53,648 nt of DNA from Escherichia virus TH29. The translations under genes and the position numbers were made by a program. Location of the stretch: the sequence record MT446403.1. One strand, given 5' to 3'. How positions within the stretch are numbered: the first letter of the stretch is position 1; each line of letters begins with the position of its first letter. Below are positions 23,565-35,728 of this stretch, one piece after another. The notes under the pieces were generated by a model, which made no database searches, was not told where the DNA came from, and saw nothing but the letters and a program-made list of their open reading frames with translations.

Positions 23565-26500
23565 TTATCTACGTTCCATTGCACCATTACCCATGTTGAT
23601 TGTTTGGGTAACAGTTTGACCGTTCGGAGTTGACACGGTTGCAGACGCTTGCTTATTGTTCACAGTAGCTTTGACTTCAACGTTAACTACAGTGGCCTGT
23701 GTCTGACCATAAGACAGTCCATTTCTGGTGAAGCCAGTTGCACCTTCTGCAATAGAATCGCCCTGAGAAGCCCATTCACGGTACTTCTTGACGCGGTTCT
23801 GTGCCTGTAGAGGAACAGCATTGAGCCAGTCGGTTCCGTGTTTGTTGATAGCATCATCAACAGTTCCAGCACCATCCGTATACGCCGCCATAGCCTTCTC
23901 AGCGTCACCATTATAACGCTTGAGCATTGCATCATAGTAGTCACGACCAACGCGAGCACGCTCTTCCAGCGAGTTATCACGGGCAGGTTTAACACCAAAT
24001 CCTGGGTCACGGGAAGTTGAATCAAGAACCTGCATACGACCTTTAGCACCAGTCGGAGATGTAACCACCGAACCATCTGCGTTCAAATCGCGGTTCCCTG
24101 ACTCCTCTCCTGCGATAAAGTCATATACCGTTCTGGTAGTATCAGCTAAACCATTTGACGCTGTACGCGCTACTCTGGCTGCATCTCCACCTGCTTCGAT
24201 AAATGAACTCCCGTAGGATATTGCAGCTTGCGGAACTGCGTATCCTGGCAGCACCCCAGCACGCTCCGTCTGCGCTATTCCTAGCTGTGCAACGCCATCG
24301 GCATACTGTGAGTTGGCTCCACGGCTTACGTTCTCCTGAGCCTCGTTCACGCTGTAATCTGTACGGTCATAGGCGCGAGCCATGCCATCCAGACCTGCCA
24401 TCTCCATAGCCCCAGCGATACGAGCCTGACTCCAGCCCCGCTCCTGACCACGTTCACGCATTACCCGCGCTAAGGCCACAGGGTCGCCCTGTGCCGCACG
24501 AATGTCGCCAATAGTGATAAGACCACGGGTTCCCTGAACGATGTTGACAGCGCCGCTGGGGTCGCCATTCAGGAGGGTGTTATAGGCACTATGTGTGGTT
24601 CGATTGAGTCGGCCAGCTTGTTGCTGATTAAGCCCCAACATTTCCAAGCCCTGCGACATGGAAGAATACTCATTAGGGTTATTGACACCAGCGTCTAAAG
24701 AGTTTCCGTAGAAATCGTTCAGACCTTCGAGCGCCTCGTTACCAATCTGGGTAGCACCAATAGCCATACCCGCCACACGACCCCACGGAGTCATCATGAG
24801 AGCATTCATCGCACCATTGGATAGTGAGCCTATACTACCGCCAGCCACGCCAGCAGCCAATGCGCCACCAGCACGACCGAAGTCATCTGAGAAGCTGCCG
24901 CCAGTGTTCCAACCACGACCACCGCCGCCACCGGAACCACCTCCACCAATGCCATAACTACTAGCATCGAAGGTGTCCCAGAAGCCGCCACCACCGCCAC
25001 GACCACCATTGTCCCCGAAGTCGGCATCTTGTCCACGCAGCTTGTTTTCTTCCTGAGCAGCGAGGATACCTTTCTTGACAGATACTGCCATCAGGTCATT
25101 ACCAGTTGTGCTGTCAGAGCCTACGGCAGAGGCTGTGGCTTCACCAACTCCAGCACTGGTACGGTTGCCTATGAATGGGTCATCGGCTGTACCAGCAGCG
25201 GCAGAGTAGCCACGCGTTGACTTCTGCTTAACATCCTTCCAGATGCCATCGCCAGTCATTGCAGCACGAGCACCTTTGATTAAATCATCATTGGACAAGT
25301 CTGAATTAGCTTCAACAAACTCTCGACCAGCATTAAGACGACCAATAGTAGAATCAATCTTATCTTTGTTGCGTTCGTACCATCCCTCGTCTTTCTCAAT
25401 CCATTCCGATACCGTCTTGTCTCCGATTGTCTGAGAGAACAATGCACGACTACGGCCAGATACAAGCATACCAAATTGAATTTGGTCGAGGTAATCCTTA
25501 TGCTCACCAGCAGATAGGTTAGAAAACTTCTTAGCCCTTTCAGGGTTCTTGTGTTCCCAAATCGCGTCATCACCGATAAGGCCATCTGGGGAATACATGA
25601 ACGACGGATAATTGTCATTTGTTATTGCGCCAGCTTGCTCAATGTCGAATCCAAACTCTTTGGCGACACGGTTACGAGCAACTTCTTCCGTCCGATGACC
25701 TGCTTCGAACATTCGTTGGGTAAATTCACTTGGCCCCTTTCCGCGTTGTAGGCCAATTTTATCAACCATTGCAGCCCAAGGTCGAGTATATTCATTGTTA
25801 CCAAGAAATGAACCGACAGTTGAGCCAGTAATGTCATATTGCTTGCGGAAGTCTAACCATTCCTGAGTGCCCTGTTCCATGTTGTGATAACGGATTGGAC
25901 CTTCTTGCGGAGCTGGTTGTGGAGCAGAGTCCAAATTAGATATAGCAATGCTCTCGCGACGGGCGCGAGCAGAGTTCCAACTTGTTGGAGAATCAAGTTG
26001 TGCAAGAAACTCTGTAGAGGGACTCAGTTCTACAGGTCCAGTATTCCTTAAACGTTCAGCAGGGTCGAATGTTCGAGCGACTTCTGCCTCATTATATTGA
26101 TGAGCATTCTCAAGAACGCCACGAATAGATGAACCAGAGTAACGAGGGTCGTCACCAATATCTTTCTTAAGGTTATCGTAACCGGAACGAACATCTGCAA
26201 TGTCTGCGTAACGAGAAGCAGAGTCCAGAATTAAATCTCTGTCAGAAGATTGAGTGCGATATGCATTCATTCCTCTTTCAGCACCACCAGAATAAACCTT
26301 TGCCGCAGATTTAACTACGCCAGAAACATCTTGGTAGAGCGTTTTGCTTGCATCAGACCAACCTGGAGAACCAGACAAGGATGCAGATAAAGAATATTCA
26401 GCCTTAATGCCACCACCAAACGAACCAAGAGGTAAACCAGATGCGTTAAGAGGCTGTCGAGGATGCTGAATATCACCGACAATAGATTCGGAGCCAAGTT

Positions 26501-27242
26501 GTGGCAATGAATCCATGTATGAAAGTTTTGGCCCCGACTTATTTCCTACATTCATTGCAGATACGGCAGCAACTTCTCGGAAGTTTTGCGGTAATTCTGA
26601 TTCTAAACGTTTGGCTACACGATAAACATCTCGTGCATAGCGGTCTGGGTTGTCGTATTGTTCACGGTCAACATACATGTGAGCAAGATAACCAAATGAC
26701 TTGGCAATATCTCCACGGTTTGTGGAATATTCATCCATAATATTACCGGTGTAGTGTCCGGCAAGTTCAGGCATTATATCTTGATGACCTGCAAGAGTAT
26801 CTCGCATGTACGAGTTAAGCATTCCCCAATGACCTTCCGGCTTGTTGGGGTTGGCTTTAGGCATGTGCATCCAAACATCATCAGTGGATACACCAAGTTG
26901 TTCCATGTATGCGTGAACTGCTTCTACATGGTGTCCTGGTCCGTTCATTGCAGCATGGAATGTTTCAGTCAGCCCAGCACCAGAAATCATCTGTGCTACA
27001 TGTGCTGCATCTGAAATCATATCAGAAGTCCCGTATGAAGTTTCATCCTCATACATCTGGGAATCTGGTTCGCCCAAAAGCTGTGAATTTGTTTCCATCC
27101 AACCTGACGCAGCACTTGATTCAAGTTGCTGGGCCATATCTCGTTTGCGCATACCAGGATTGAAGGACAGACCGTACTGAGCACCCATGCCGATTAGTTC
27201 GGCCTCGGATAGCTTCATTAAATCTTTTAAGTTCTTAGCCAT
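23565..27242 (-). CDS. Tail tape measure protein with C-terminal lytic transglycosylase (SLT) domain
   Basis: 1225 aa; Gly-rich central tract (GGGGGFWDTF..., GGGGSGGGGGRGW); C-terminal ESGNRDLNADG...GAKGRMQVLDSTSRD...AYTDGAG matches SLT motifs. Confidence 0.8.
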   Translation of the reverse strand: MAKNLKDLMKLSEAELIGMGAQYGLSFNPGMRKRDMAQQLESSAASGWMETNSQLLGEPDSQMYEDETSYGTSDMISDAAHVAQMISGAGLTETFHAAMNGPGHHVEAVHAYMEQLGVSTDDVWMHMPKANPNKPEGHWGMLNSYMRDTLAGHQDIMPELAGHYTGNIMDEYSTNRGDIAKSFGYLAHMYVDREQYDNPDRYARDVYRVAKRLESELPQNFREVAAVSAMNVGNKSGPKLSYMDSLPQLGSESIVGDIQHPRQPLNASGLPLGSFGGGIKAEYSLSASLSGSPGWSDASKTLYQDVSGVVKSAAKVYSGGAERGMNAYRTQSSDRDLILDSASRYADIADVRSGYDNLKKDIGDDPRYSGSSIRGVLENAHQYNEAEVARTFDPAERLRNTGPVELSPSTEFLAQLDSPTSWNSARARRESIAISNLDSAPQPAPQEGPIRYHNMEQGTQEWLDFRKQYDITGSTVGSFLGNNEYTRPWAAMVDKIGLQRGKGPSEFTQRMFEAGHRTEEVARNRVAKEFGFDIEQAGAITNDNYPSFMYSPDGLIGDDAIWEHKNPERAKKFSNLSAGEHKDYLDQIQFGMLVSGRSRALFSQTIGDKTVSEWIEKDEGWYERNKDKIDSTIGRLNAGREFVEANSDLSNDDLIKGARAAMTGDGIWKDVKQKSTRGYSAAAGTADDPFIGNRTSAGVGEATASAVGSDSTTGNDLMAVSVKKGILAAQEENKLRGQDADFGDNGGRGGGGGFWDTFDASSYGIGGGGSGGGGGRGWNTGGSFSDDFGRAGGALAAGVAGGSIGSLSNGAMNALMMTPWGRVAGMAIGATQIGNEALEGLNDFYGNSLDAGVNNPNEYSSMSQGLEMLGLNQQQAGRLNRTTHSAYNTLLNGDPSGAVNIVQGTRGLITIGDIRAAQGDPVALARVMRERGQERGWSQARIAGAMEMAGLDGMARAYDRTDYSVNEAQENVSRGANSQYADGVAQLGIAQTERAGVLPGYAVPQAAISYGSSFIEAGGDAARVARTASNGLADTTRTVYDFIAGEESGNRDLNADGSVVTSPTGAKGRMQVLDSTSRDPGFGVKPARDNSLEERARVGRDYYDAMLKRYNGDAEKAMAAYTDGAGTVDDAINKHGTDWLNAVPLQAQNRVKKYREWASQGDSIAEGATGFTRNGLSYGQTQATVVNVEVKATVNNKQASATVSTPNGQTVTQTINMGNGAMERR

Positions 27243-27869
27243 TGTCTTCTTCTTTAGGTTTTAGTTCATTACGCAAATCAAGTATTGCGTGGAAAGTTAA
27301 CAAATCCATAATAGAGTAGGTCCCGTCCGAGAGTTCTTTAAGAGAACAGAGAGAACTGTCCTCTATTACAGGACGGTGCAGGAAGTATTTTATTTCCGGG
27401 AACTTCTGAGTTAAATCGTTTCCGGACTCGAATTCTTCTGCTCGGCCATTTTGGATGCTTCCACCGCCTCCAATTGTCTGCGTTCGTTGAGTTCGAGCCC
27501 TTGCTTGAAAAAATCAAGGAAGTTCGATTCAAGAACAAATGCAAACACATGGTGCATGAGCATTAAATTGCCGTTGTACTTCATCTGCATAGTGCGTGGA
27601 TTAACTTCGACACCATCAATGGTCGCCATACACACTACACGTTTAATTAATTCTGTTACTTCCGTATGAGTTCCACCCTGCTGCATCAAATGAATAATGT
27701 CTGCAAAGTTATATTTGTTCTCAACGAATGGGAATATCGAAATACCGAGTTTCTGAACAAGCTCGACTTGGAGGTCAAGAGCTTGGCTGGCACCGAGTTG
27801 TCGCGTACCAACCAAGACTGTCTCACCAGAGTCGGCTTGTAACTCGCGTTGGCGAAGTTCACAAGCCAT
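27235..27869 (-). CDS. Predicted -1 frameshift product of the tail assembly chaperone (G/GT-like)
   Basis: Slippery heptamer U_UUU_UUC at 27507-27513 in the zero frame; the -1 frame is open for 88 codons and stops at 27235-27237, overlapping the tape measure ATG. Confidence 0.5.
27411..27869 (-). CDS. Tail assembly chaperone (zero-frame product)
   Basis: 152-aa ORF between the tail tube and tape measure genes, the canonical chaperone position. Confidence 0.55.
   Translation of the reverse strand: MACELRQRELQADSGETVLVGTRQLGASQALDLQVELVQKLGISIFPFVENKYNFADIIHLMQQGGTHTEVTELIKRVVCMATIDGVEVNPRTMQMKYNGNLMLMHHVFAFVLESNFLDFFKQGLELNERRQLEAVEASKMAEQKNSSPETI
27507..27513 (-). other. -1 programmed frameshift slippery site UUUUUUC
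   Basis: Zero-frame codons GAU UUU UUC fit X_XXY_YYZ. Confidence 0.5.
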
Positions 27870-27885
27870 TCTCTTTTACCTTATA

Positions 27886-28341
27886 TTAGACGCCGATTTC
27901 TGGATACTGGCCAGTTACGATGGTAAGGCGTTCTACAAACACAGCCCACATATTCGAAGTGAAAGTTACACCACGAACGATTGCTGGCTGTTGCAGAATT
28001 GCACCATTGACACCGTTAACCAGAACATCACCCATCTTGTCAACCAACTGCAACTGCAAAGGTTCCCAGAGAGATTTGTTACCAGACAAACCAGTTGCAC
28101 GAGTAAGCTGTGCACGTTGGTAAAGGATTTCGTTCCAGTCTGCCGTTTGCAGCAGTGGGAAAGTGATAACCCCAGACTGGTCAGCAGTGGTTGCTACAGC
28201 AAGTTTGCCGTATGCATCCATGACAGGAACATGCTGTGGCACGTTGTATCGTGCCGTAATTACAGATTGCCCTGCCTGAAAACCGTCTACACGAGCACCG
28301 TCAATCAGGAGGTCTGTATTATAAAACGAATATTGCTTCAC
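27886..28341 (-). CDS. Tail tube protein
   Basis: 151-aa ORF directly downstream of the sheath gene. Confidence 0.6.
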   Translation of the reverse strand: MKQYSFYNTDLLIDGARVDGFQAGQSVITARYNVPQHVPVMDAYGKLAVATTADQSGVITFPLLQTADWNEILYQRAQLTRATGLSGNKSLWEPLQLQLVDKMGDVLVNGVNGAILQQPAIVRGVTFTSNMWAVFVERLTIVTGQYPEIGV

Positions 28342-28350
28342 TGTTCACCC

Positions 28351-29799
28351 TTACTGAATGAAGTTGCCAGAGATTACAGCACCCTGGATTGCACCGGAAC
28401 CGATAGCAATAAAGGAAGTACCTTCCCAAATACGTTCGCCCTTCTGCGACTGCAAGAGTTCTAACGGAGTAGAGATAACTTTGTAGCCTTCTGGATAGAA
28501 GACACCTTCGTTATCAAAGCCAGGGGCAATGAGGCCGTTAGTCTTAGCGAGTTCGAGCGCCAGGGTTACTTGCTGGTTAACCATTGCTACACCAGTGTCC
28601 GTCCAAGGAATCTTGGTAGTGGAAGTGTAGAACAAGTTGAACACGTTCAGTCGAACTTTCTGAGTCAGCCATTCAACACCCTGTACGGAGTCGAACCACG
28701 TCCCATCAGCCATACGACCGTTGAAGAACATTACGTTGCCAGCAACAGAAATGAATGCGTTACCACCACAAGCCAGCAGTGCGCTTACCTGACCAGAAGA
28801 CAAGTCAGCAGTGGAAATACCTGGACCTTTCTTGTATGCCAGAATAAGAACAGAGTTTGCAACGTTGAAGTTAACAGTTGATGCACGGCCCAGAATAGAA
28901 ATTTCTGGATATTCATCACCGTTTGCGGAAGCATCGTAAACACACAGAGTGTTACGCAGGTTCTGGTTCTTAGCACGACGGAAGCTGTTATCAGTGCCGT
29001 TGATAAGAATGTTCTTGTCGTTATCACCCCAACCAAATACTTTGCTGGATGCTTCACACCACTTCGCCACAGACATTTGGTTGTCTACTGGAGAGGTTTT
29101 GCCACGATACTGGCGGTCAAGGCCTACATAGAAGAAGTTGAATGGAGCATCTGCAATATTAGACAAGTCGGAAGAGATGGATAGCTCGTTCTTACCAGCA
29201 ACAATAACTGCACTGACAGAAGATTGCAGCTTCAACACTTCACCAACTTTACCACCAACGTTGCTGATAGTTGCGTTGATGCCAGTTGCAGAAGTGGTCA
29301 GCTTGAACTTGCCAGCTTCCTGGGTAACAGTTACGCCAGCACCAACAGAAGATAGTGCAGTAGTTACCAAATTTGCAACTTCGTCGAAGTCGGCAGCAGA
29401 AGAGAAATCAATCGGGTCAGTAACGTACTGAACGCCGCTAACACTTAACTGCATGGTTGCAGCAGTTTCCAGCTTAATGGTTGCCAGTACAGCAGCAGTT
29501 GCAGCAGTAACAGTGGCAGGAGTTGCTGGAGTCAGAGTATCGTACTTGATAGCGCCGACCAGGAAAGTCTTCGGAGTTGGCTTTTGCGAGTACCAAGAGG
29601 TAGCAGCTTTAGCAATCTCACCACCAGGGAAGTCTGCGAGAACTTCTTTCAAACTGGTATACGAGCGAACCGGATATACATCAACGGTTGGTACAAACTC
29701 TTTGCTCAGGAAGAGCAACGGCCCAAAACCATCAGTCGCAATGGCGTTCGGGGAGATTGCGATATCAACCTGAACTAAGTCAGAAATTGGGATTGACAT
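28351..29799 (-). CDS. Contractile tail sheath protein
   Basis: 482-aa ORF upstream of the tube gene; size and order typical of myovirus sheaths. Confidence 0.65.
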   Translation of the reverse strand: MSIPISDLVQVDIAISPNAIATDGFGPLLFLSKEFVPTVDVYPVRSYTSLKEVLADFPGGEIAKAATSWYSQKPTPKTFLVGAIKYDTLTPATPATVTAATAAVLATIKLETAATMQLSVSGVQYVTDPIDFSSAADFDEVANLVTTALSSVGAGVTVTQEAGKFKLTTSATGINATISNVGGKVGEVLKLQSSVSAVIVAGKNELSISSDLSNIADAPFNFFYVGLDRQYRGKTSPVDNQMSVAKWCEASSKVFGWGDNDKNILINGTDNSFRRAKNQNLRNTLCVYDASANGDEYPEISILGRASTVNFNVANSVLILAYKKGPGISTADLSSGQVSALLACGGNAFISVAGNVMFFNGRMADGTWFDSVQGVEWLTQKVRLNVFNLFYTSTTKIPWTDTGVAMVNQQVTLALELAKTNGLIAPGFDNEGVFYPEGYKVISTPLELLQSQKGERIWEGTSFIAIGSGAIQGAVISGNFIQ

Positions 29800-31550: not shown

Positions 31551-32558
31551 TTAAATACCGGAGTTGATGGAGATTGCTGCCGGATACATTGCCTGGAAGC
31601 CAGCGAAACGGCCACGGCCAGGTACTTCATAAACCAGACCATGCAGCTGAACTGGTTGCCAAGTTAACGGCAGCGGTTCACGCAGACGGAAGGTACGGTT
31701 GCCCATAGCTTCACGGCACACAACTACGAAGCAATCTGCACCAGAAGCACCGTGACCTTTGATTGCGTTCAGACCCTTGATTTTGTCGCGGGAGTTGATG
31801 AATTGGTTGTTGTCAATGAAGAACTGACCAATAGTCTTGTCAGACTGCTCAGAACGTGCGGTGTTGAAGATGTACTGCTCATGCTCAACAGGCATCCAGA
31901 TTTCAGAAGGACGCATGATTTTCAGAGTAGATGCGTACATTGCAGACACAGCAGTGGTCAGGTCAGCGATAACTTCGGTCGGAGTCTTCTCGTTCCACTT
32001 AGTAGAGCTGCCAGCGCCCTGAGCAACAGTTGCTTTGGTAACGTCTGGGTTTTCGAAGAAGCCAACGAAGCCGTTAGCCTGGTCGCCGTACCATGCAGCG
32101 GAGTTTACATACTGCTCGTAACCACGAATCGCAGCATTTGCTTTACGAGTTTCCAGCGGCAGACCGGTTACAGCAGCAGATGCAACTTCGTCAATATCAT
32201 AGTCGAATGCAGTACCAACAGACTTAACTGTTACGCTGTATTCTTTGCCAGAAATGCTGGACTTCGGCAGGTCGGTTGCACGGGCGTTAATTACCTGAGC
32301 TTTACCAACATGGTTGTAAGAACGGTAGGTCAGCGTGTTAACACCAGCGCCGCCAGTAGTATCAACACCGAAAGCAGCACGAGCTTCCAGTTCAGGATAC
32401 AGGGTGTCGTAAGTTTGAGCTTCAATGAACTCAAGCTGACGTTGAAAGAACACTGCGTCGTCGTCATTCAAAACAACGGTGCCAGAGTCCTGGATACGGG
32501 TGATGGCATCATTCAGTTCAAATTCAGAACCGTCGGCCAGTTTAATCATCTTTGGCAT
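31551..32558 (-). CDS. Major capsid protein
   Basis: 335-aa ORF after portal, protease/scaffold and head-protein genes; followed by a strong hairpin. Confidence 0.65.
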   Translation of the reverse strand: MPKMIKLADGSEFELNDAITRIQDSGTVVLNDDDAVFFQRQLEFIEAQTYDTLYPELEARAAFGVDTTGGAGVNTLTYRSYNHVGKAQVINARATDLPKSSISGKEYSVTVKSVGTAFDYDIDEVASAAVTGLPLETRKANAAIRGYEQYVNSAAWYGDQANGFVGFFENPDVTKATVAQGAGSSTKWNEKTPTEVIADLTTAVSAMYASTLKIMRPSEIWMPVEHEQYIFNTARSEQSDKTIGQFFIDNNQFINSRDKIKGLNAIKGHGASGADCFVVVCREAMGNRTFRLREPLPLTWQPVQLHGLVYEVPGRGRFAGFQAMYPAAISINSGI

Positions 32559-32602: not shown

Positions 32603-32898
32603 TTAAGGATGCGTAATGGTGATTGCTTTAGTAGCAGTTACACCAGGAGCAGTCTTATGGGTTGCTTTGATTGTTGCAGAAGTCGCAGTACCAATCGTCG
32701 CAGTTGCAACAGTTACAGTACCATTGGCCGCCACAGTTACTCCAGTGACCGCTGGGTCAACAGTGAAGTTGTAGTCACTTGCAACAGAGTTTGCAAACGT
32801 AAACAGTTTATCAACAGTTACGGTAGCATTTACAGTTGAAGCATCAGCAGTCACAGCTGCCGCTACCGCAGTAACGGTCGGTGCTGGAGGTGGCGTTA
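32603..32898 (-). CDS. Ig-like domain extension reached only by -1 frameshift from the upstream head protein
   Basis: Open -1 frame (RSPKVVTPPPAPTVTAVAAAVTADASTVNATVTVDK...ITITHP) with Thr/Val/Ala-rich repeats; no ATG or RBS of its own (ORF track starts it on GTG). Confidence 0.5.
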
Positions 32899-33369
32899 CG
32901 ACTTTGGGACTACGTTAATCATGACCGGAACAACATCACCAGCAGCAGCCGGATAGCGAAGTGCAGTCAGGTTGGTTGCCTTAGTATAGCCAGCGCCAAC
33001 ACCACCAAATTGACCAGTGGCAGATACGCCAATGTCTTTATCGGTGATTGCAGTAACCAGTTTAACCATGATTGGGCCAGACAGCATAACGCCCAGAGGC
33101 CAGCCAGCTTTGATTGCAACAGTGCCGTCACCAGGACGAGTTGCGGATTCGATGTTAATCTGGCGCATAGTAATGCCCAGAACAGTGCCGTCGGCTTCAA
33201 TACCAGGCTTAACCTGATTGGAAGCAGTACCCTGAACAACAGCTAAACCAAAGTTAGCCATTTCAGTTTCAGCATTGAAAGTCAGGCGCTGAGAGTTAGT
33301 GGTAGCCAGGCCATATTGCTCACCCGCATATGCTGCACCAGTATTAATAGACCAATCTTGCTTTGGCAT
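32896..33369 (-). CDS. Head protein (decoration-like by position), zero-frame product
   Basis: 157-aa ORF between the protease/scaffold gene and the major capsid gene, the lambda D position. Confidence 0.45.
   Translation of the reverse strand: MPKQDWSINTGAAYAGEQYGLATTNSQRLTFNAETEMANFGLAVVQGTASNQVKPGIEADGTVLGITMRQINIESATRPGDGTVAIKAGWPLGVMLSGPIMVKLVTAITDKDIGVSATGQFGGVGAGYTKATNLTALRYPAAAGDVVPVMINVVPKS
32902..32908 (-). other. -1 programmed frameshift slippery site CCCAAAG
   Basis: Zero-frame GUC CCA AAG UCG UAA: heptamer C_CCA_AAG one codon before the stop; -1 slip gives CCC AAA then the open Ig-like frame. Confidence 0.5.
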
Positions 33370-33378
33370 TGTCTTACC

Positions 33379-34443
33379 TTATAAAGAGTTGAAGCGTTCT
33401 AAACGACGTTTGTTAGCTTCTTCGGAAATAGAAACTTTAGGCTTGCGAGCTTCTGAATCTTTCTTAGCAGTGAATTGCATAGATTGGTTCAGGGCATCAC
33501 CCAAAGTAATGGAATCACAATCTTCAAGTGCTGCATCGAAACGAGCGGAGATGTAATCTTCACTCTTATCGCTGAAATCCTTGTCATGCAATTTATTAAC
33601 TACAGCCAACTTAACTTCCGAATCGGACTTGCCGGAGAAATCAAGACTGGAGAACTCGTCGCCAAGACGGGCCACATCAATGAGAAGTGCTGTACGAGCA
33701 ACAACACGTTTGTCTACCTCAGCCTGAATGGCTTCATCGGATAGTCGTGCAGTTTCTGCATCAGCAAGTTTCTGCTCAAGGGTGCTAATCTTGTCAAGCG
33801 CCGCATCACGCTCTGCTTCAACAACATCAAAGGTTGCCTTATCGACAATGGAAATCTCTTCACCAGAGTCACCAATGCGAGTAGTCTGAGCACGACCACG
33901 AACAACAATTGCAGCATGGTTAGGGATAATACGAACTTTGTCGAAGTCTGCATCGGCATCTTCTGCAACAGCCAGTTCTGCATTATGGCCCAGGGAGATT
34001 TGGTCAACACCAGAATCAACTAATCGGATAGCTTGCTCGTCATTCAAAACGATTGATGCAGCCAAGAAAGAACCGTCTGCAATTGGACGACCTTCGATGA
34101 ACCCTTTCTGGAGTTCTTTGTTGTTCTTGATATTGACGTCATCTTTTGGATGACCGATAGTAACCGGAATTGAACGACAACCTTCAATGGTTGCCTCATC
34201 AAATAATACTTCCGGCTTGGTGCGAACACGGCAAATAGATTCTGGGTCTAGATGTTTTGCAATCTCACCAAGTTCTTTCGCTTTGTACAGCATAATGCCA
34301 GTACGAGCAATGGTGCATTCTGCAATCATTTCGCCAGAGTCGCGTAAACGACGGGTCGTCAGAGTGGCCTTGTCGGTTAACAAAACTACTTCATTCACGG
34401 TATCTTCGTCGTTAAGCTGAACCAGGTTTTGGCTTTGCTTCAC
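33379..34443 (-). CDS. Head morphogenesis protein (putative prohead protease/scaffold)
   Basis: ORF 33379-34617 overlaps the portal gene, so the real start is internal (GTG at 34441-34443 or ATG at 34327-34329); C-terminal half is coiled-coil-like. Confidence 0.4.
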   Translation of the reverse strand: MKQSQNLVQLNDEDTVNEVVLLTDKATLTTRRLRDSGEMIAECTIARTGIMLYKAKELGEIAKHLDPESICRVRTKPEVLFDEATIEGCRSIPVTIGHPKDDVNIKNNKELQKGFIEGRPIADGSFLAASIVLNDEQAIRLVDSGVDQISLGHNAELAVAEDADADFDKVRIIPNHAAIVVRGRAQTTRIGDSGEEISIVDKATFDVVEAERDAALDKISTLEQKLADAETARLSDEAIQAEVDKRVVARTALLIDVARLGDEFSSLDFSGKSDSEVKLAVVNKLHDKDFSDKSEDYISARFDAALEDCDSITLGDALNQSMQFTAKKDSEARKPKVSISEEANKRRLERFNSL

Positions 34444-35728
34444 TTGCGTTACCCTTTTGGATGTTAGGAGGTTTAGGATTTGGCTTGCCCAGGTCGCAAG
34501 TTCCGAACACGCCCGAATGGAACATGACTTCGTTTGCAACTTCTGTAGTAATGGTTCCATTGTTAACCAGCAGGTCAACTGCGAATGCCAAATCTTTAGC
34601 TCGCTTCGCTTTCTCAACGTTGGATTCAGGGAAGATATCTAACCATTCATAGTCATATTCTTCAATGCCAAAGTGCGCCTGGACAATCTTATCTACCACA
34701 TCTAAACGTGGGTCAAAGACAGAAGTCTGCAAGCCTGTCAACAAGTCGATATAGTTTACGAGGTCAGATTCGCCCGTAGCGTTCATACCGTCTGGAGATG
34801 CAGAAAGGAAACGTGTAGCCGGAATACCAACTGCGGCAGCAACTATCTTTAAGTATTCCCAAATCAAATCTTTCACACCAGATAGTGCAATTGACTTGGT
34901 GTCATACTTCTCAGTGTTGTCGAGAATTAGGACATTATAAATACTCTTTGCCAGCTTCATGAGTTTGAAGCGCTTCATCACAGCAGCTTCACCTTCAGGT
35001 GATGTAAGCAGAGATTGTAAGCCTTCAACAGTTACCACATCAATTGTGGCTTCTTGAGCAAGGCTGGCAGCAGCAGCAGCGGTTGTATAAAATTGGTCAA
35101 TCGTTTTCAGCAGTGGAATAAGTACCGAATCAGAATACCACATGTTACGTTGGAATTCGAACAGTGGAAGTTCAGTACCCTCGAACCGAAGGAAACGAGT
35201 GTAATGGATATAGCCGGGATACCCCGCCAAAGTGTAAAACTCTGGCAAACCATAATGAGGACTCAAAGGGTCCAGCACCATAGTTCCTGCGGCAAATAAG
35301 CGTGAGCGGTCAATAACTCTCATGGATTTAATACATCCAGTCTTCAAGTTATCCAGACGCAATGGTGTATCAAGTTTACCCGTCCCTTTCAGGTCGAGTA
35401 ATACAAATGAAGTCCCATACAGTCTGGCCCATTGATATGCTTCACGGAACAGTTTGCGGATACGAAGTTTCTTATCAGCTTTGCGCCCTTCTTCACTATC
35501 AATATGTCGCCACTTACGCGTCATGTCTTGAGGAATAACGGTACACACTTTCTGTGATACCCAATCCTCACGGAAGCGGTTCATCAGTTCGCGATAGTTC
35601 GCGTTCTTGTTGGAGAAAGACCACTGGTTAAAAGTAGACTTATCTGCCTGACCGCCCAACCCTGTTACAAGGTTTTCTAACCCATCTGCAACTTTAACAG
35701 AGAGATTGTTTTTCTTTTTGGAAGTCAT
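34412..35728 (-). CDS. Portal protein
   Basis: 438-aa ORF immediately after the large terminase region. Confidence 0.6.
   Translation of the reverse strand: MTSKKKNNLSVKVADGLENLVTGLGGQADKSTFNQWSFSNKNANYRELMNRFREDWVSQKVCTVIPQDMTRKWRHIDSEEGRKADKKLRIRKLFREAYQWARLYGTSFVLLDLKGTGKLDTPLRLDNLKTGCIKSMRVIDRSRLFAAGTMVLDPLSPHYGLPEFYTLAGYPGYIHYTRFLRFEGTELPLFEFQRNMWYSDSVLIPLLKTIDQFYTTAAAAASLAQEATIDVVTVEGLQSLLTSPEGEAAVMKRFKLMKLAKSIYNVLILDNTEKYDTKSIALSGVKDLIWEYLKIVAAAVGIPATRFLSASPDGMNATGESDLVNYIDLLTGLQTSVFDPRLDVVDKIVQAHFGIEEYDYEWLDIFPESNVEKAKRAKDLAFAVDLLVNNGTITTEVANEVMFHSGVFGTCDLGKPNPKPPNIQKGNASEAKPKPGSA

Follow-up and report, generated by a model that had tools for sequence, protein, structure and literature searches.

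C-terminal immunoglobulin (Ig)-like domains added to phage structural proteins by ribosomal frameshifting form an established class (Fraser et al., summarized in PMC5009743), whose members include T3 gene 10 and Lactobacillus phage A2, as well as Listeria phages, whose coat and tail genes contain +1 or -1 shifts (PMC5009743). In both T3 (10A/10B) and A2 (gp5A/5B) a -1 shift near the end of a head gene yields a minor long form with a surface Ig-like domain (PMC5009743), and in T7 (10A/10B) a -1 shift at the 3' end of the capsid gene gives a minor longer subunit that is in wide use for low-copy display (PMC13370021). Here we describe a similar arrangement in Escherichia virus TH29 (MT446403.1), at positions 32,603 to 33,369 of a 53,648-nt stretch, referred to below as the window, which constitutes a nearly complete 53.6-kb genome of a coliphage, a myophage from the Chaseviridae family (subfamily Cleopatravirinae). 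At this locus, a programmed -1 frameshift very probably adds an Ig-like domain to the capsid cement (decoration) protein, as judged from the sequence and its comparison with relatives.

The cement gene (32896..33369; all features of the locus lie on the minus strand) encodes a protein of 157 aa (16.1 kDa) and ends with ...AUU AAC GUA GUC CCA AAG UCG UAA. Direct reading of the sequence places the slippery heptamer C_CCA_AAG at 32908..32902, in phase with the gene and one codon ahead of the UAA stop (32898..32896), where the original prediction had put it. In the -1 frame the same region reads CCC AAA GUC GUA ACG CCA CCU CCA..., and this frame is open from 32914 to 32603, with 99 codons beyond the Lys codon and a UAA stop at 32605..32603, again in line with the approximately 99 codons initially proposed. 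The resulting extension peptide, VVTPPPAPTVTAVAAAVTADAS...KAITITHP, begins with VVTPPPAPTV and ends with ITITHP. It comprises a Pro-rich linker, VVTPPPAP (32879..32902), conserved in relatives as K(V/A)VTPPPAP, and a predicted Ig-like domain of the Big_2-type fold (extension residues 9–99, 32606..32878). The predicted trans-frame fusion would be a protein of 255 aa and 25.7 kDa, compared to 16.1 kDa for the 0-frame form.

A chance origin of this arrangement is disfavored, since the minus strand of the 53.6-kb window has no CCCAAAG other than the one near the end of the cement gene, and just 186 of 20,000 shuffles of the 297-nt extension (0.9%) are free of stops. Moreover, only two open reading frames (ORFs) of at least 70 aa in the window, the cement gene and a candidate tail-chaperone gene described below, have an in-phase X_XXY_YYZ heptamer no more than 120 nt from the stop followed by at least 40 further -1 codons. 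Two other ways of reading into the extension were considered and rejected: stop-codon readthrough, as the extension is read in frame -1, the 0 frame being full of stops, and a +1 shift, as that frame closes 17 codons past the stop.

The 0-frame product was originally described as a structural head protein encoded next to the major capsid gene; this description stands and can be refined to a capsid cement, or decoration, protein. The 157-aa protein belongs to the Pfam family PF22758 Phage_cement, represented by E217 gp24 and Pam3 gp6 (E = 1.1e-16, 61.7 bits at a cut-off of 27), and is also assigned to PHROG 563, of the head and packaging category. The cement part and the extension were modelled separately by AlphaFold2 (AF2). 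The cement model has a predicted local distance difference test score (pLDDT) of 86.5, and in Foldseek it is closest to the Pam3 cement protein gp6 (8hdt_G, template modelling score, TM, 0.69), followed by the decoration proteins of T1, HFTV1, XM1 and E217 (gp24). A sequence search of the PDB with the same protein yielded zero matches, and it was the fold search that provided these structural relatives. The sequence family and the modelled fold agree, and by both the product is a beta-tulip cement protein of the same family as Pam3 gp6, E217 gp24 and XM1 gp53 (PF22758, PF23982).

Pam3 has a genome of 54.5 kb, similar in size to that of the phage studied here, and a T=7 head with 140 cement trimers (PMC9942802). 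By analogy with Pam3 and E217, the cement trimers of the TH29 head would sit on the icosahedral and quasi-threefold axes and point their C-termini outward. The accessible parts of the Pam3 and E217 papers mention neither a frameshift nor an Ig appendage, whereas both are predicted for the candidate described here.

The nature of the carrier sets this locus apart from the described systems. In T3 and A2 the frameshift extends an HK97-fold major capsid protein, and here it would extend an accessory beta-tulip cement protein, predicted to reside at threefold sites. The T7 carrier is also the major capsid protein; in addition, the T7 slip site is of the G_GUU_UUC type and the T7 extension is not Ig-like (PMC5009743). 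Hence, the analogy with T7 10A/10B drawn in the original prediction is apt in its logic, but T3 gene 10 and A2 are closer parallels (PMC5009743). The present site is an analogue of T7/T3 10A/10B and not a member of that group, because the recoded gene is that of the cement protein, and the major capsid protein (PF09950) is encoded by the next gene, 31551..32558.

The extension was predicted from the outset to be Ig-like, and fold prediction bears this out. The AF2 model, built from a shallow alignment, has a mean pLDDT of 93 and a predicted TM score (pTM) of 0.81, and shows a nine-strand beta sandwich following an extended Pro-rich segment. Its Foldseek matches in the PDB include the T5 tail-tube protein pb6, the phi29 capsid protein gp8, invasin, and Rib domains, the matched regions being, as we assume, the Ig-like domains of these proteins. 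Among the BFVD matches there are BIG2-domain proteins, the major capsid proteins of phages Paul and 7-11, and several major tail proteins, with 25–35% identity. At the sequence level, the extension weakly matches PHROG 13745, “Ig domain containing protein”, and scores below the threshold for every Pfam Ig family. Thus, the extension is confidently modelled as an Ig-like fold.

For comparison, cement loci were collected from 16 GenBank phages, IMG/VR contigs, metagenome contigs and contigs with divergent homologues, yielding 43 distinct loci after deduplication, with few additional loci contributed by the metagenome scan. A locus was counted as having the slip site if an in-phase NNNAAAR was present within the last eight cement codons (0–5 codons before the stop), and as having the extension if the latter comprised at least 92 codons in the -1 frame. 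Both features, with extensions of 92 to 193 codons, are present in 27 of the 43 loci, which span phages of Escherichia, Yersinia, Erwinia, Pantoea, Pectobacterium, Proteus and Aeromonas, as well as metagenomes. Neither feature is found in 14 loci, comprising Nefertitivirinae of Aeromonas, Shewanella and Vibrio and some metagenomic lineages whose C-terminus differs; in two of these 14 the -1 frame is that of the capsid gene itself, starting 14–59 nt downstream. The remaining two loci, L031 (AGCAAAA, probably fortuitous) and L045, have a heptamer and no domain. The association between the heptamer and the extension is highly significant (Fisher p = 1.5e-9 over the 43 distinct loci). A sequencing error or a pseudogene was rejected as an explanation, the same frame relation being observed in 27 independently assembled distinct loci.

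The heptamer is CCCAAAG in 19 of the 27 extension-bearing loci, and CCCAAAA, GGGAAAG, GGGAAAA, GGUAAAG, GUUAAAG or GGCAAAG in the other eight. Several of these variants share their non-canonical X_XX forms with T7 gene 10 and equine arteritis virus (PMC5009743). Each of the variants allows the Lys tRNA, at a minimum, to re-pair in the A site, and some of them (G_GCA_AAG in Myduc, G_GUA_AAG, G_UUA_AAG) re-pair well only at that site. This leaves room for the fusion being made in another way, by transcriptional slippage at the C3 or A3 runs or by A-site-only slippage at A_AAG aided by the stop, the more so as in about a third of the lineages the stop directly follows AAG, a “shifty stop” context reportedly described by Weiss et al. 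in 1987. Transcriptional slippage, however, requires homopolymer runs much longer than CCC or AAA. As for slippage at the A site only, the window and most relatives have the full X_XXY_YYZ heptamer, and the stop in the window is one codon away from the heptamer rather than adjacent to it.

The pattern of constraint on the first base of the heptamer also argues against A-site-only slippage. The codon ahead of CCA varies by lineage (GUC, AUC, CUC, GCC, GGC, UCC or UUC), and with it the amino acid (Val, Ile, Leu, Ala, Gly, Ser or Phe), but its third base is always C; Pro is always encoded by CCA, and Lys by AAG or AAA. In the structural genes of the window, C-ending codons make up 9–36% of the synonymous usage in the respective codon families, and the joint chance of C in the first six contexts (UUC left out) is about 3e-5, with the window codon usage and independence assumed. 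Judged by these comparisons, the heptamer is conserved beyond the needs of the 0-frame protein. An invariant C before CCA is understandable only when re-pairing of the P-site tRNA on CCC is required, and we consider a fusion made by the other routes to be very improbable compared to a tandem -1 slip on the heptamer.

The conservation extends beyond the slip site. A segment of approximately 14 nt directly 3' of the heptamer (32880-32901, minus strand; (U/C)CGUAACGCCACCUCC) hardly changes from genus to genus, including at sites where a change would be synonymous in the -1 frame; in the window, the sequence immediately 3' of the heptamer is GUAACGCCACCUCC. Part of this invariance is due to the 0-frame UAA embedded there. 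The CACCUCC motif in this segment was considered as a Shine-Dalgarno (SD)-like element and rejected, as it has the same sense as the 3' tail of 16S rRNA and is not its complement. One of the two loci with a heptamer and no domain, L045 (OGVK01000246.1, about 1765-1820), retains CCCAAAG and the linker (KAVTPPAPAPTICS, followed by a stop), its -1 frame ending after 11 codons; the Ig domain is cleanly deleted, and the capsid gene starts 42 nt past the cement stop.

The -1 frame also shows a clear coding signal. By first, second and third codon positions of this frame, the extension differs at 15, 12 and 46 sites from that of phiEcoM-GJ1, and at 12, 7 and 44 sites from that of 4HA13. The same bias is observed in the first 16 codons of the extension, upstream of the GTG at 32854: pairwise differences by position number 63, 82 and 240, that is, 240 of 385 fall at third positions. 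Thus, as indicated by the substitution pattern, the -1 frame is under purifying selection from the first codon past the slip site.

This bears directly on where translation of the extension begins. The domain could belong to a small gene in its own right, with translation starting at the GTG at 32854 or at another GTG or TTG codon, in which case the heptamer would be incidental. The original prediction had named independent initiation at this GTG as a competing explanation, and had stated that the extension has neither a start codon nor a ribosome-binding site of its own. The latter statement holds in that the -1 frame of the window contains no ATG, that ATG is absent from this frame in most loci, and that no start is conserved, but not in the strict sense, as GTG and other near-cognate codons are present, the first GTG, at 32854, giving an 83-aa ORF. 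Since SD sequences are generally weak in this phage, a missing one is not decisive. Separate ORFs for an “Ig domain containing protein” have been annotated in several records (ST32 gp56, Y2 gp67, SSEM1 gp73, and an “Ig protein” in BSBP01). Moreover, a metagenomic variant with a 97% identical cement protein, L040 (OERV01001402.1), has at the site equivalent to 32854 an ATG codon instead of GTG, which turns V into M in the -1 frame, and in this locus independent initiation might be possible.

Nevertheless, the candidate starts behave unlike those of a gene. Across the relatives, the first GTG or TTG in the -1 frame wanders from +23 to +167 nt past the cement stop, a spread of 144 nt, and the starts of 12 ORFs in the databases fall at six or more different positions. 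The ORFs annotated at the extension in GenBank have lengths of 138, 213, 252 or 273 nt, or else none is annotated and a gap of about 300 nt is left. The third-position bias in the 16 codons upstream of the GTG at 32854, together with the conserved VTPPPAP that they encode, speaks for translation from further upstream. The relation to the cement gene is always -1, with the frame always open back to the heptamer, and the heptamer itself is constrained at synonymous sites. Finally, a free Ig domain of approximately 8 kDa would have no obvious means of attachment to the virion. With these observations contradicting initiation at 32854, a separate gene is quite improbable as the source of the domain. 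None of the 16 annotated Chaseviridae GenBank records examined joins the two frames, and in the open-access literature, to which our survey of publications was limited, we found neither papers nor annotation describing a frameshift in Chaseviridae.

The domains carried by the extension differ among relatives, and at least five unrelated cargo domains have been identified, in every case in the -1 frame and behind a Pro-rich linker. Seven loci (L025-28, L054-56) carry classical Ig_2/Ig_3/I-set domains, of which Ig_2 passes the cut-off and Ig_3 and I-set do not reach theirs; cargo of this type also matches Hoc-like and major-tail PHROGs, and the cargo of Myduc, like that of L025, has matches to Hoc-like PHROGs. 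Other beta domains serve as cargo in Myduc, L029, L030 and L035. The extensions of Escherichia phage flopper (L021), L043, L057 and L060 are 191–193 codons long and contain two tandem Ig-like domains; in flopper and L043, the domain of the window type has been duplicated along with the PAPTVSAV linker.

These replacements and duplications, with the frame kept, also bear on whether the extension is expressed at all. It could be a decaying remnant of an in-frame or separate domain without meaningful expression, next to an accidental heptamer. Such decay would fit the loss of the domain in L045 and the existence of a whole subfamily, Nefertitivirinae, without it, as well as the lack of a stimulator at the slip site (see below), as shifting on a heptamer alone can be under 1%. 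A remnant, however, would hardly be expected to retain an open frame under purifying selection in 27 distinct loci from many host genera, or a confidently predicted Ig fold, or to have its domains replaced and duplicated without a change of frame, and of the explanations considered here decay is the least probable.

In contrast to the variable cargo, fusion of the two proteins in a single frame has not been observed: there is no in-frame cement-Ig fusion in about 145 protein clusters searched. Cement homologues from 95 clusters (90% identity) are all 145–177 aa in length, and about three quarters of them end with PK or PKx. Among 50 representatives at 50% identity, obtained by an exhaustive phmmer search, 48 have lengths of 124–187 aa, and the other two (834 and 1407 aa) have only short, weak local matches. 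The literature explains the coexistence of frameshifted and in-frame Ig domains by chance landing of mobile domains (PMC5009743). For the family considered here, the conserved site, the swapped cargo and the absence of in-frame versions point instead to selection for low-copy display and not to a chance frame. Hence the slip site and the Pro-rich linker may form a conserved “display port”, maintained by selection for substoichiometric display, a suggestion to which we give slightly less than an even chance. If it is true, full occupancy, e.g., three Ig domains per trimer, or 420 copies per head, could be incompatible with assembly.

Each prediction made initially at the level of sequence, that is, the phase of the heptamer, the -1 frame, the start, selection and the fold, has held, and the reading of this locus as a -1 frameshift has been strengthened accordingly. 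Besides the possible independent initiation in L040, several observations weigh against it. C_CCA_AAG, along with G_GGA_AAG and A_AAA_AAG, is among the most efficient -1 heptamers in E. coli, reaching up to 54% with a strong pseudoknot, but in the absence of stimulators reporter heptamers give only 2–10 times the background of about 0.055% (PMC4066793; for the ranking and the maximum, also PMC5009743). In the window, the downstream 52 and 89 nt fold no better than shuffles (z about -1), and folds of 40 and 60 nt from 15 relatives are variable, with no common hairpin at a spacing of 5–9 nt. Visual inspection of the 30 nt preceding the heptamer revealed no SD-like motif. Overall, no convincing stimulatory RNA was found in a search that did not cover pseudoknots and long-range pairings. 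Given the lack of a stimulator and the reporter values for bare heptamers, the frameshift yield could fall well below 1%. At the protein level, we found in the open-access literature no report of a 26-kDa form in Chaseviridae by proteomics, sodium dodecyl sulphate–polyacrylamide gel electrophoresis or cryo-electron microscopy, and the paper on ST32 contains neither “frameshift” nor “mass spectrometry”.

One hairpin deserves mention. A 5-bp stem (ACCGU-UACU-GCGGU, 32865..32878, minus strand), of doubtful significance, is situated 23 nt past the heptamer on its 3' side; the RNAalifold consensus for 13 relatives has an energy of -4.9 kcal/mol, and one of its pairs varies between AU, CG, GU and UG. 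As a classical stimulator it was rejected, being too distant from the heptamer and too weak. For phage A2, a stimulatory stem-loop has been reported. The G/GT site of phage lambda, G_GGA_AAG, belongs to the same heptamer class as the present site, XXXAAAG. The lambda site has no strong stimulator, yields a few percent of shifted product from a similar bare heptamer, maintaining a low fixed product ratio, and is conserved as the surrounding sequences diverge. The GT product, on the other hand, is an assembly chaperone absent from virions, whereas here the frameshift would attach a surface domain to a structural protein.

Taken together, these data suggest the following mechanism. Most ribosomes would stop at the UAA and produce the 157-aa (16 kDa) cement protein. 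A minority would slip back one base on C_CCA_AAG, the P-site tRNA-Pro exchanging CCA for CCC and the A-site tRNA-Lys exchanging AAG for AAA, and would then read through the VVTPPPAP linker and the roughly 90-residue Ig-like domain, yielding the 255-aa cement-Ig fusion. As both forms share the whole capsid-binding body, they should assemble together at the threefold and quasi-threefold sites, and Ig-like domains in substoichiometric amounts would project from the head. With about 420 cement subunits per head, as expected by analogy with Pam3, a yield of 1–5% would correspond to roughly 4–20 Ig domains per virion.

Judging by Hoc, pb10 and other Ig-like domains of phages, the domains added here would probably adhere weakly to carbohydrate-rich surfaces. 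Hoc of T4, pb10 of T5 and gp17 of N4 likewise consist of a capsid-binding module tethered to one or several outward Ig-like domains, are dispensable for assembly, and have been proposed to be adhesins. They differ from the candidate described here in that their Ig domains are encoded in frame and are present on every copy, and their capsid modules, unrelated to PF22758, sit at hexamer centers.

For detection of the long form in virions, it should be taken into account that trypsin would cleave right at the proposed junction, between PK and VV, so that the junction-spanning peptide suggested in the original prediction requires another protease. The predicted Asp-N peptide spanning the junction is DVVPVMINVVPKVVTPPPAPTVTAVAAAVTA. 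With trypsin, the predicted linker peptide is VVTPPPAPTVTAVAAAVTADASTVNATVTVDK, whose first 16 residues precede every candidate start.

The locus resides in a head gene cluster on the minus strand. The portal gene (34412-35728) is followed by the gene for the DUF2213 head protease/scaffold (33379-34617), the cement gene and, after a gap of 337 nt from the cement stop, the major capsid gene. The longest ORF for DUF2213, 412 aa with a TTG start, overlaps the portal gene by about 200 nt; in the annotation of relatives its length ranges from 355 aa (phiEcoM-GJ1, ST32) to 413 aa (PYps16N). The 951 nt around the locus share 98.9% identity with Escherichia viruses TH23, TH28 and TH33, all unannotated, 97% with Yersinia phage PYps16N, and 86% with phiEcoM-GJ1. 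ARAGORN identified neither tRNA nor tmRNA genes in the whole window.

A second candidate -1 site in the window, T_TTT_TTC at 27513..27507 (minus strand), is located in phase inside a 152-aa ORF, 27411..27869. Beyond the stop, its -1 frame is open for a further 58 codons, to 27237, at the start of the tape-measure gene (23565..27242, 1225 aa). The ORF lies between the tape-measure gene and the genes for the tail tube (27886..28341) and sheath (28351..29799), the latter two identified by position and size. The region 27237-27869 is a candidate for the classic tail-assembly-chaperone G/GT arrangement.

The kind of recoding described here is already known; new are the carrier and the occurrence in Chaseviridae, where the 16 examined records have no frameshift annotation. 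The beta-tulip cement protein would become the third kind of carrier for frameshift-added Ig-like domains, besides major capsid and major tail proteins. As for annotation, the 16 records either leave a gap of about 300 nt at this locus or call a short Ig or hypothetical ORF with an arbitrary GTG or TTG start, while the real product of the locus is probably the 255-aa cement-Ig fusion. Several Chaseviridae, including Erwinia phage Y2, Pectobacterium phage PM1, E. coli phage ST32 and others, are under development for biocontrol, and a natural site of low-copy capsid display could serve engineering in the way T7 10B does. Moreover, the family provides a natural experiment, with one recoding site combined with at least five unrelated cargoes in single, double and deleted versions, which may help to understand why low-copy display is selected and whether the domains confer adhesion to mucus, plant or bacterial surfaces.

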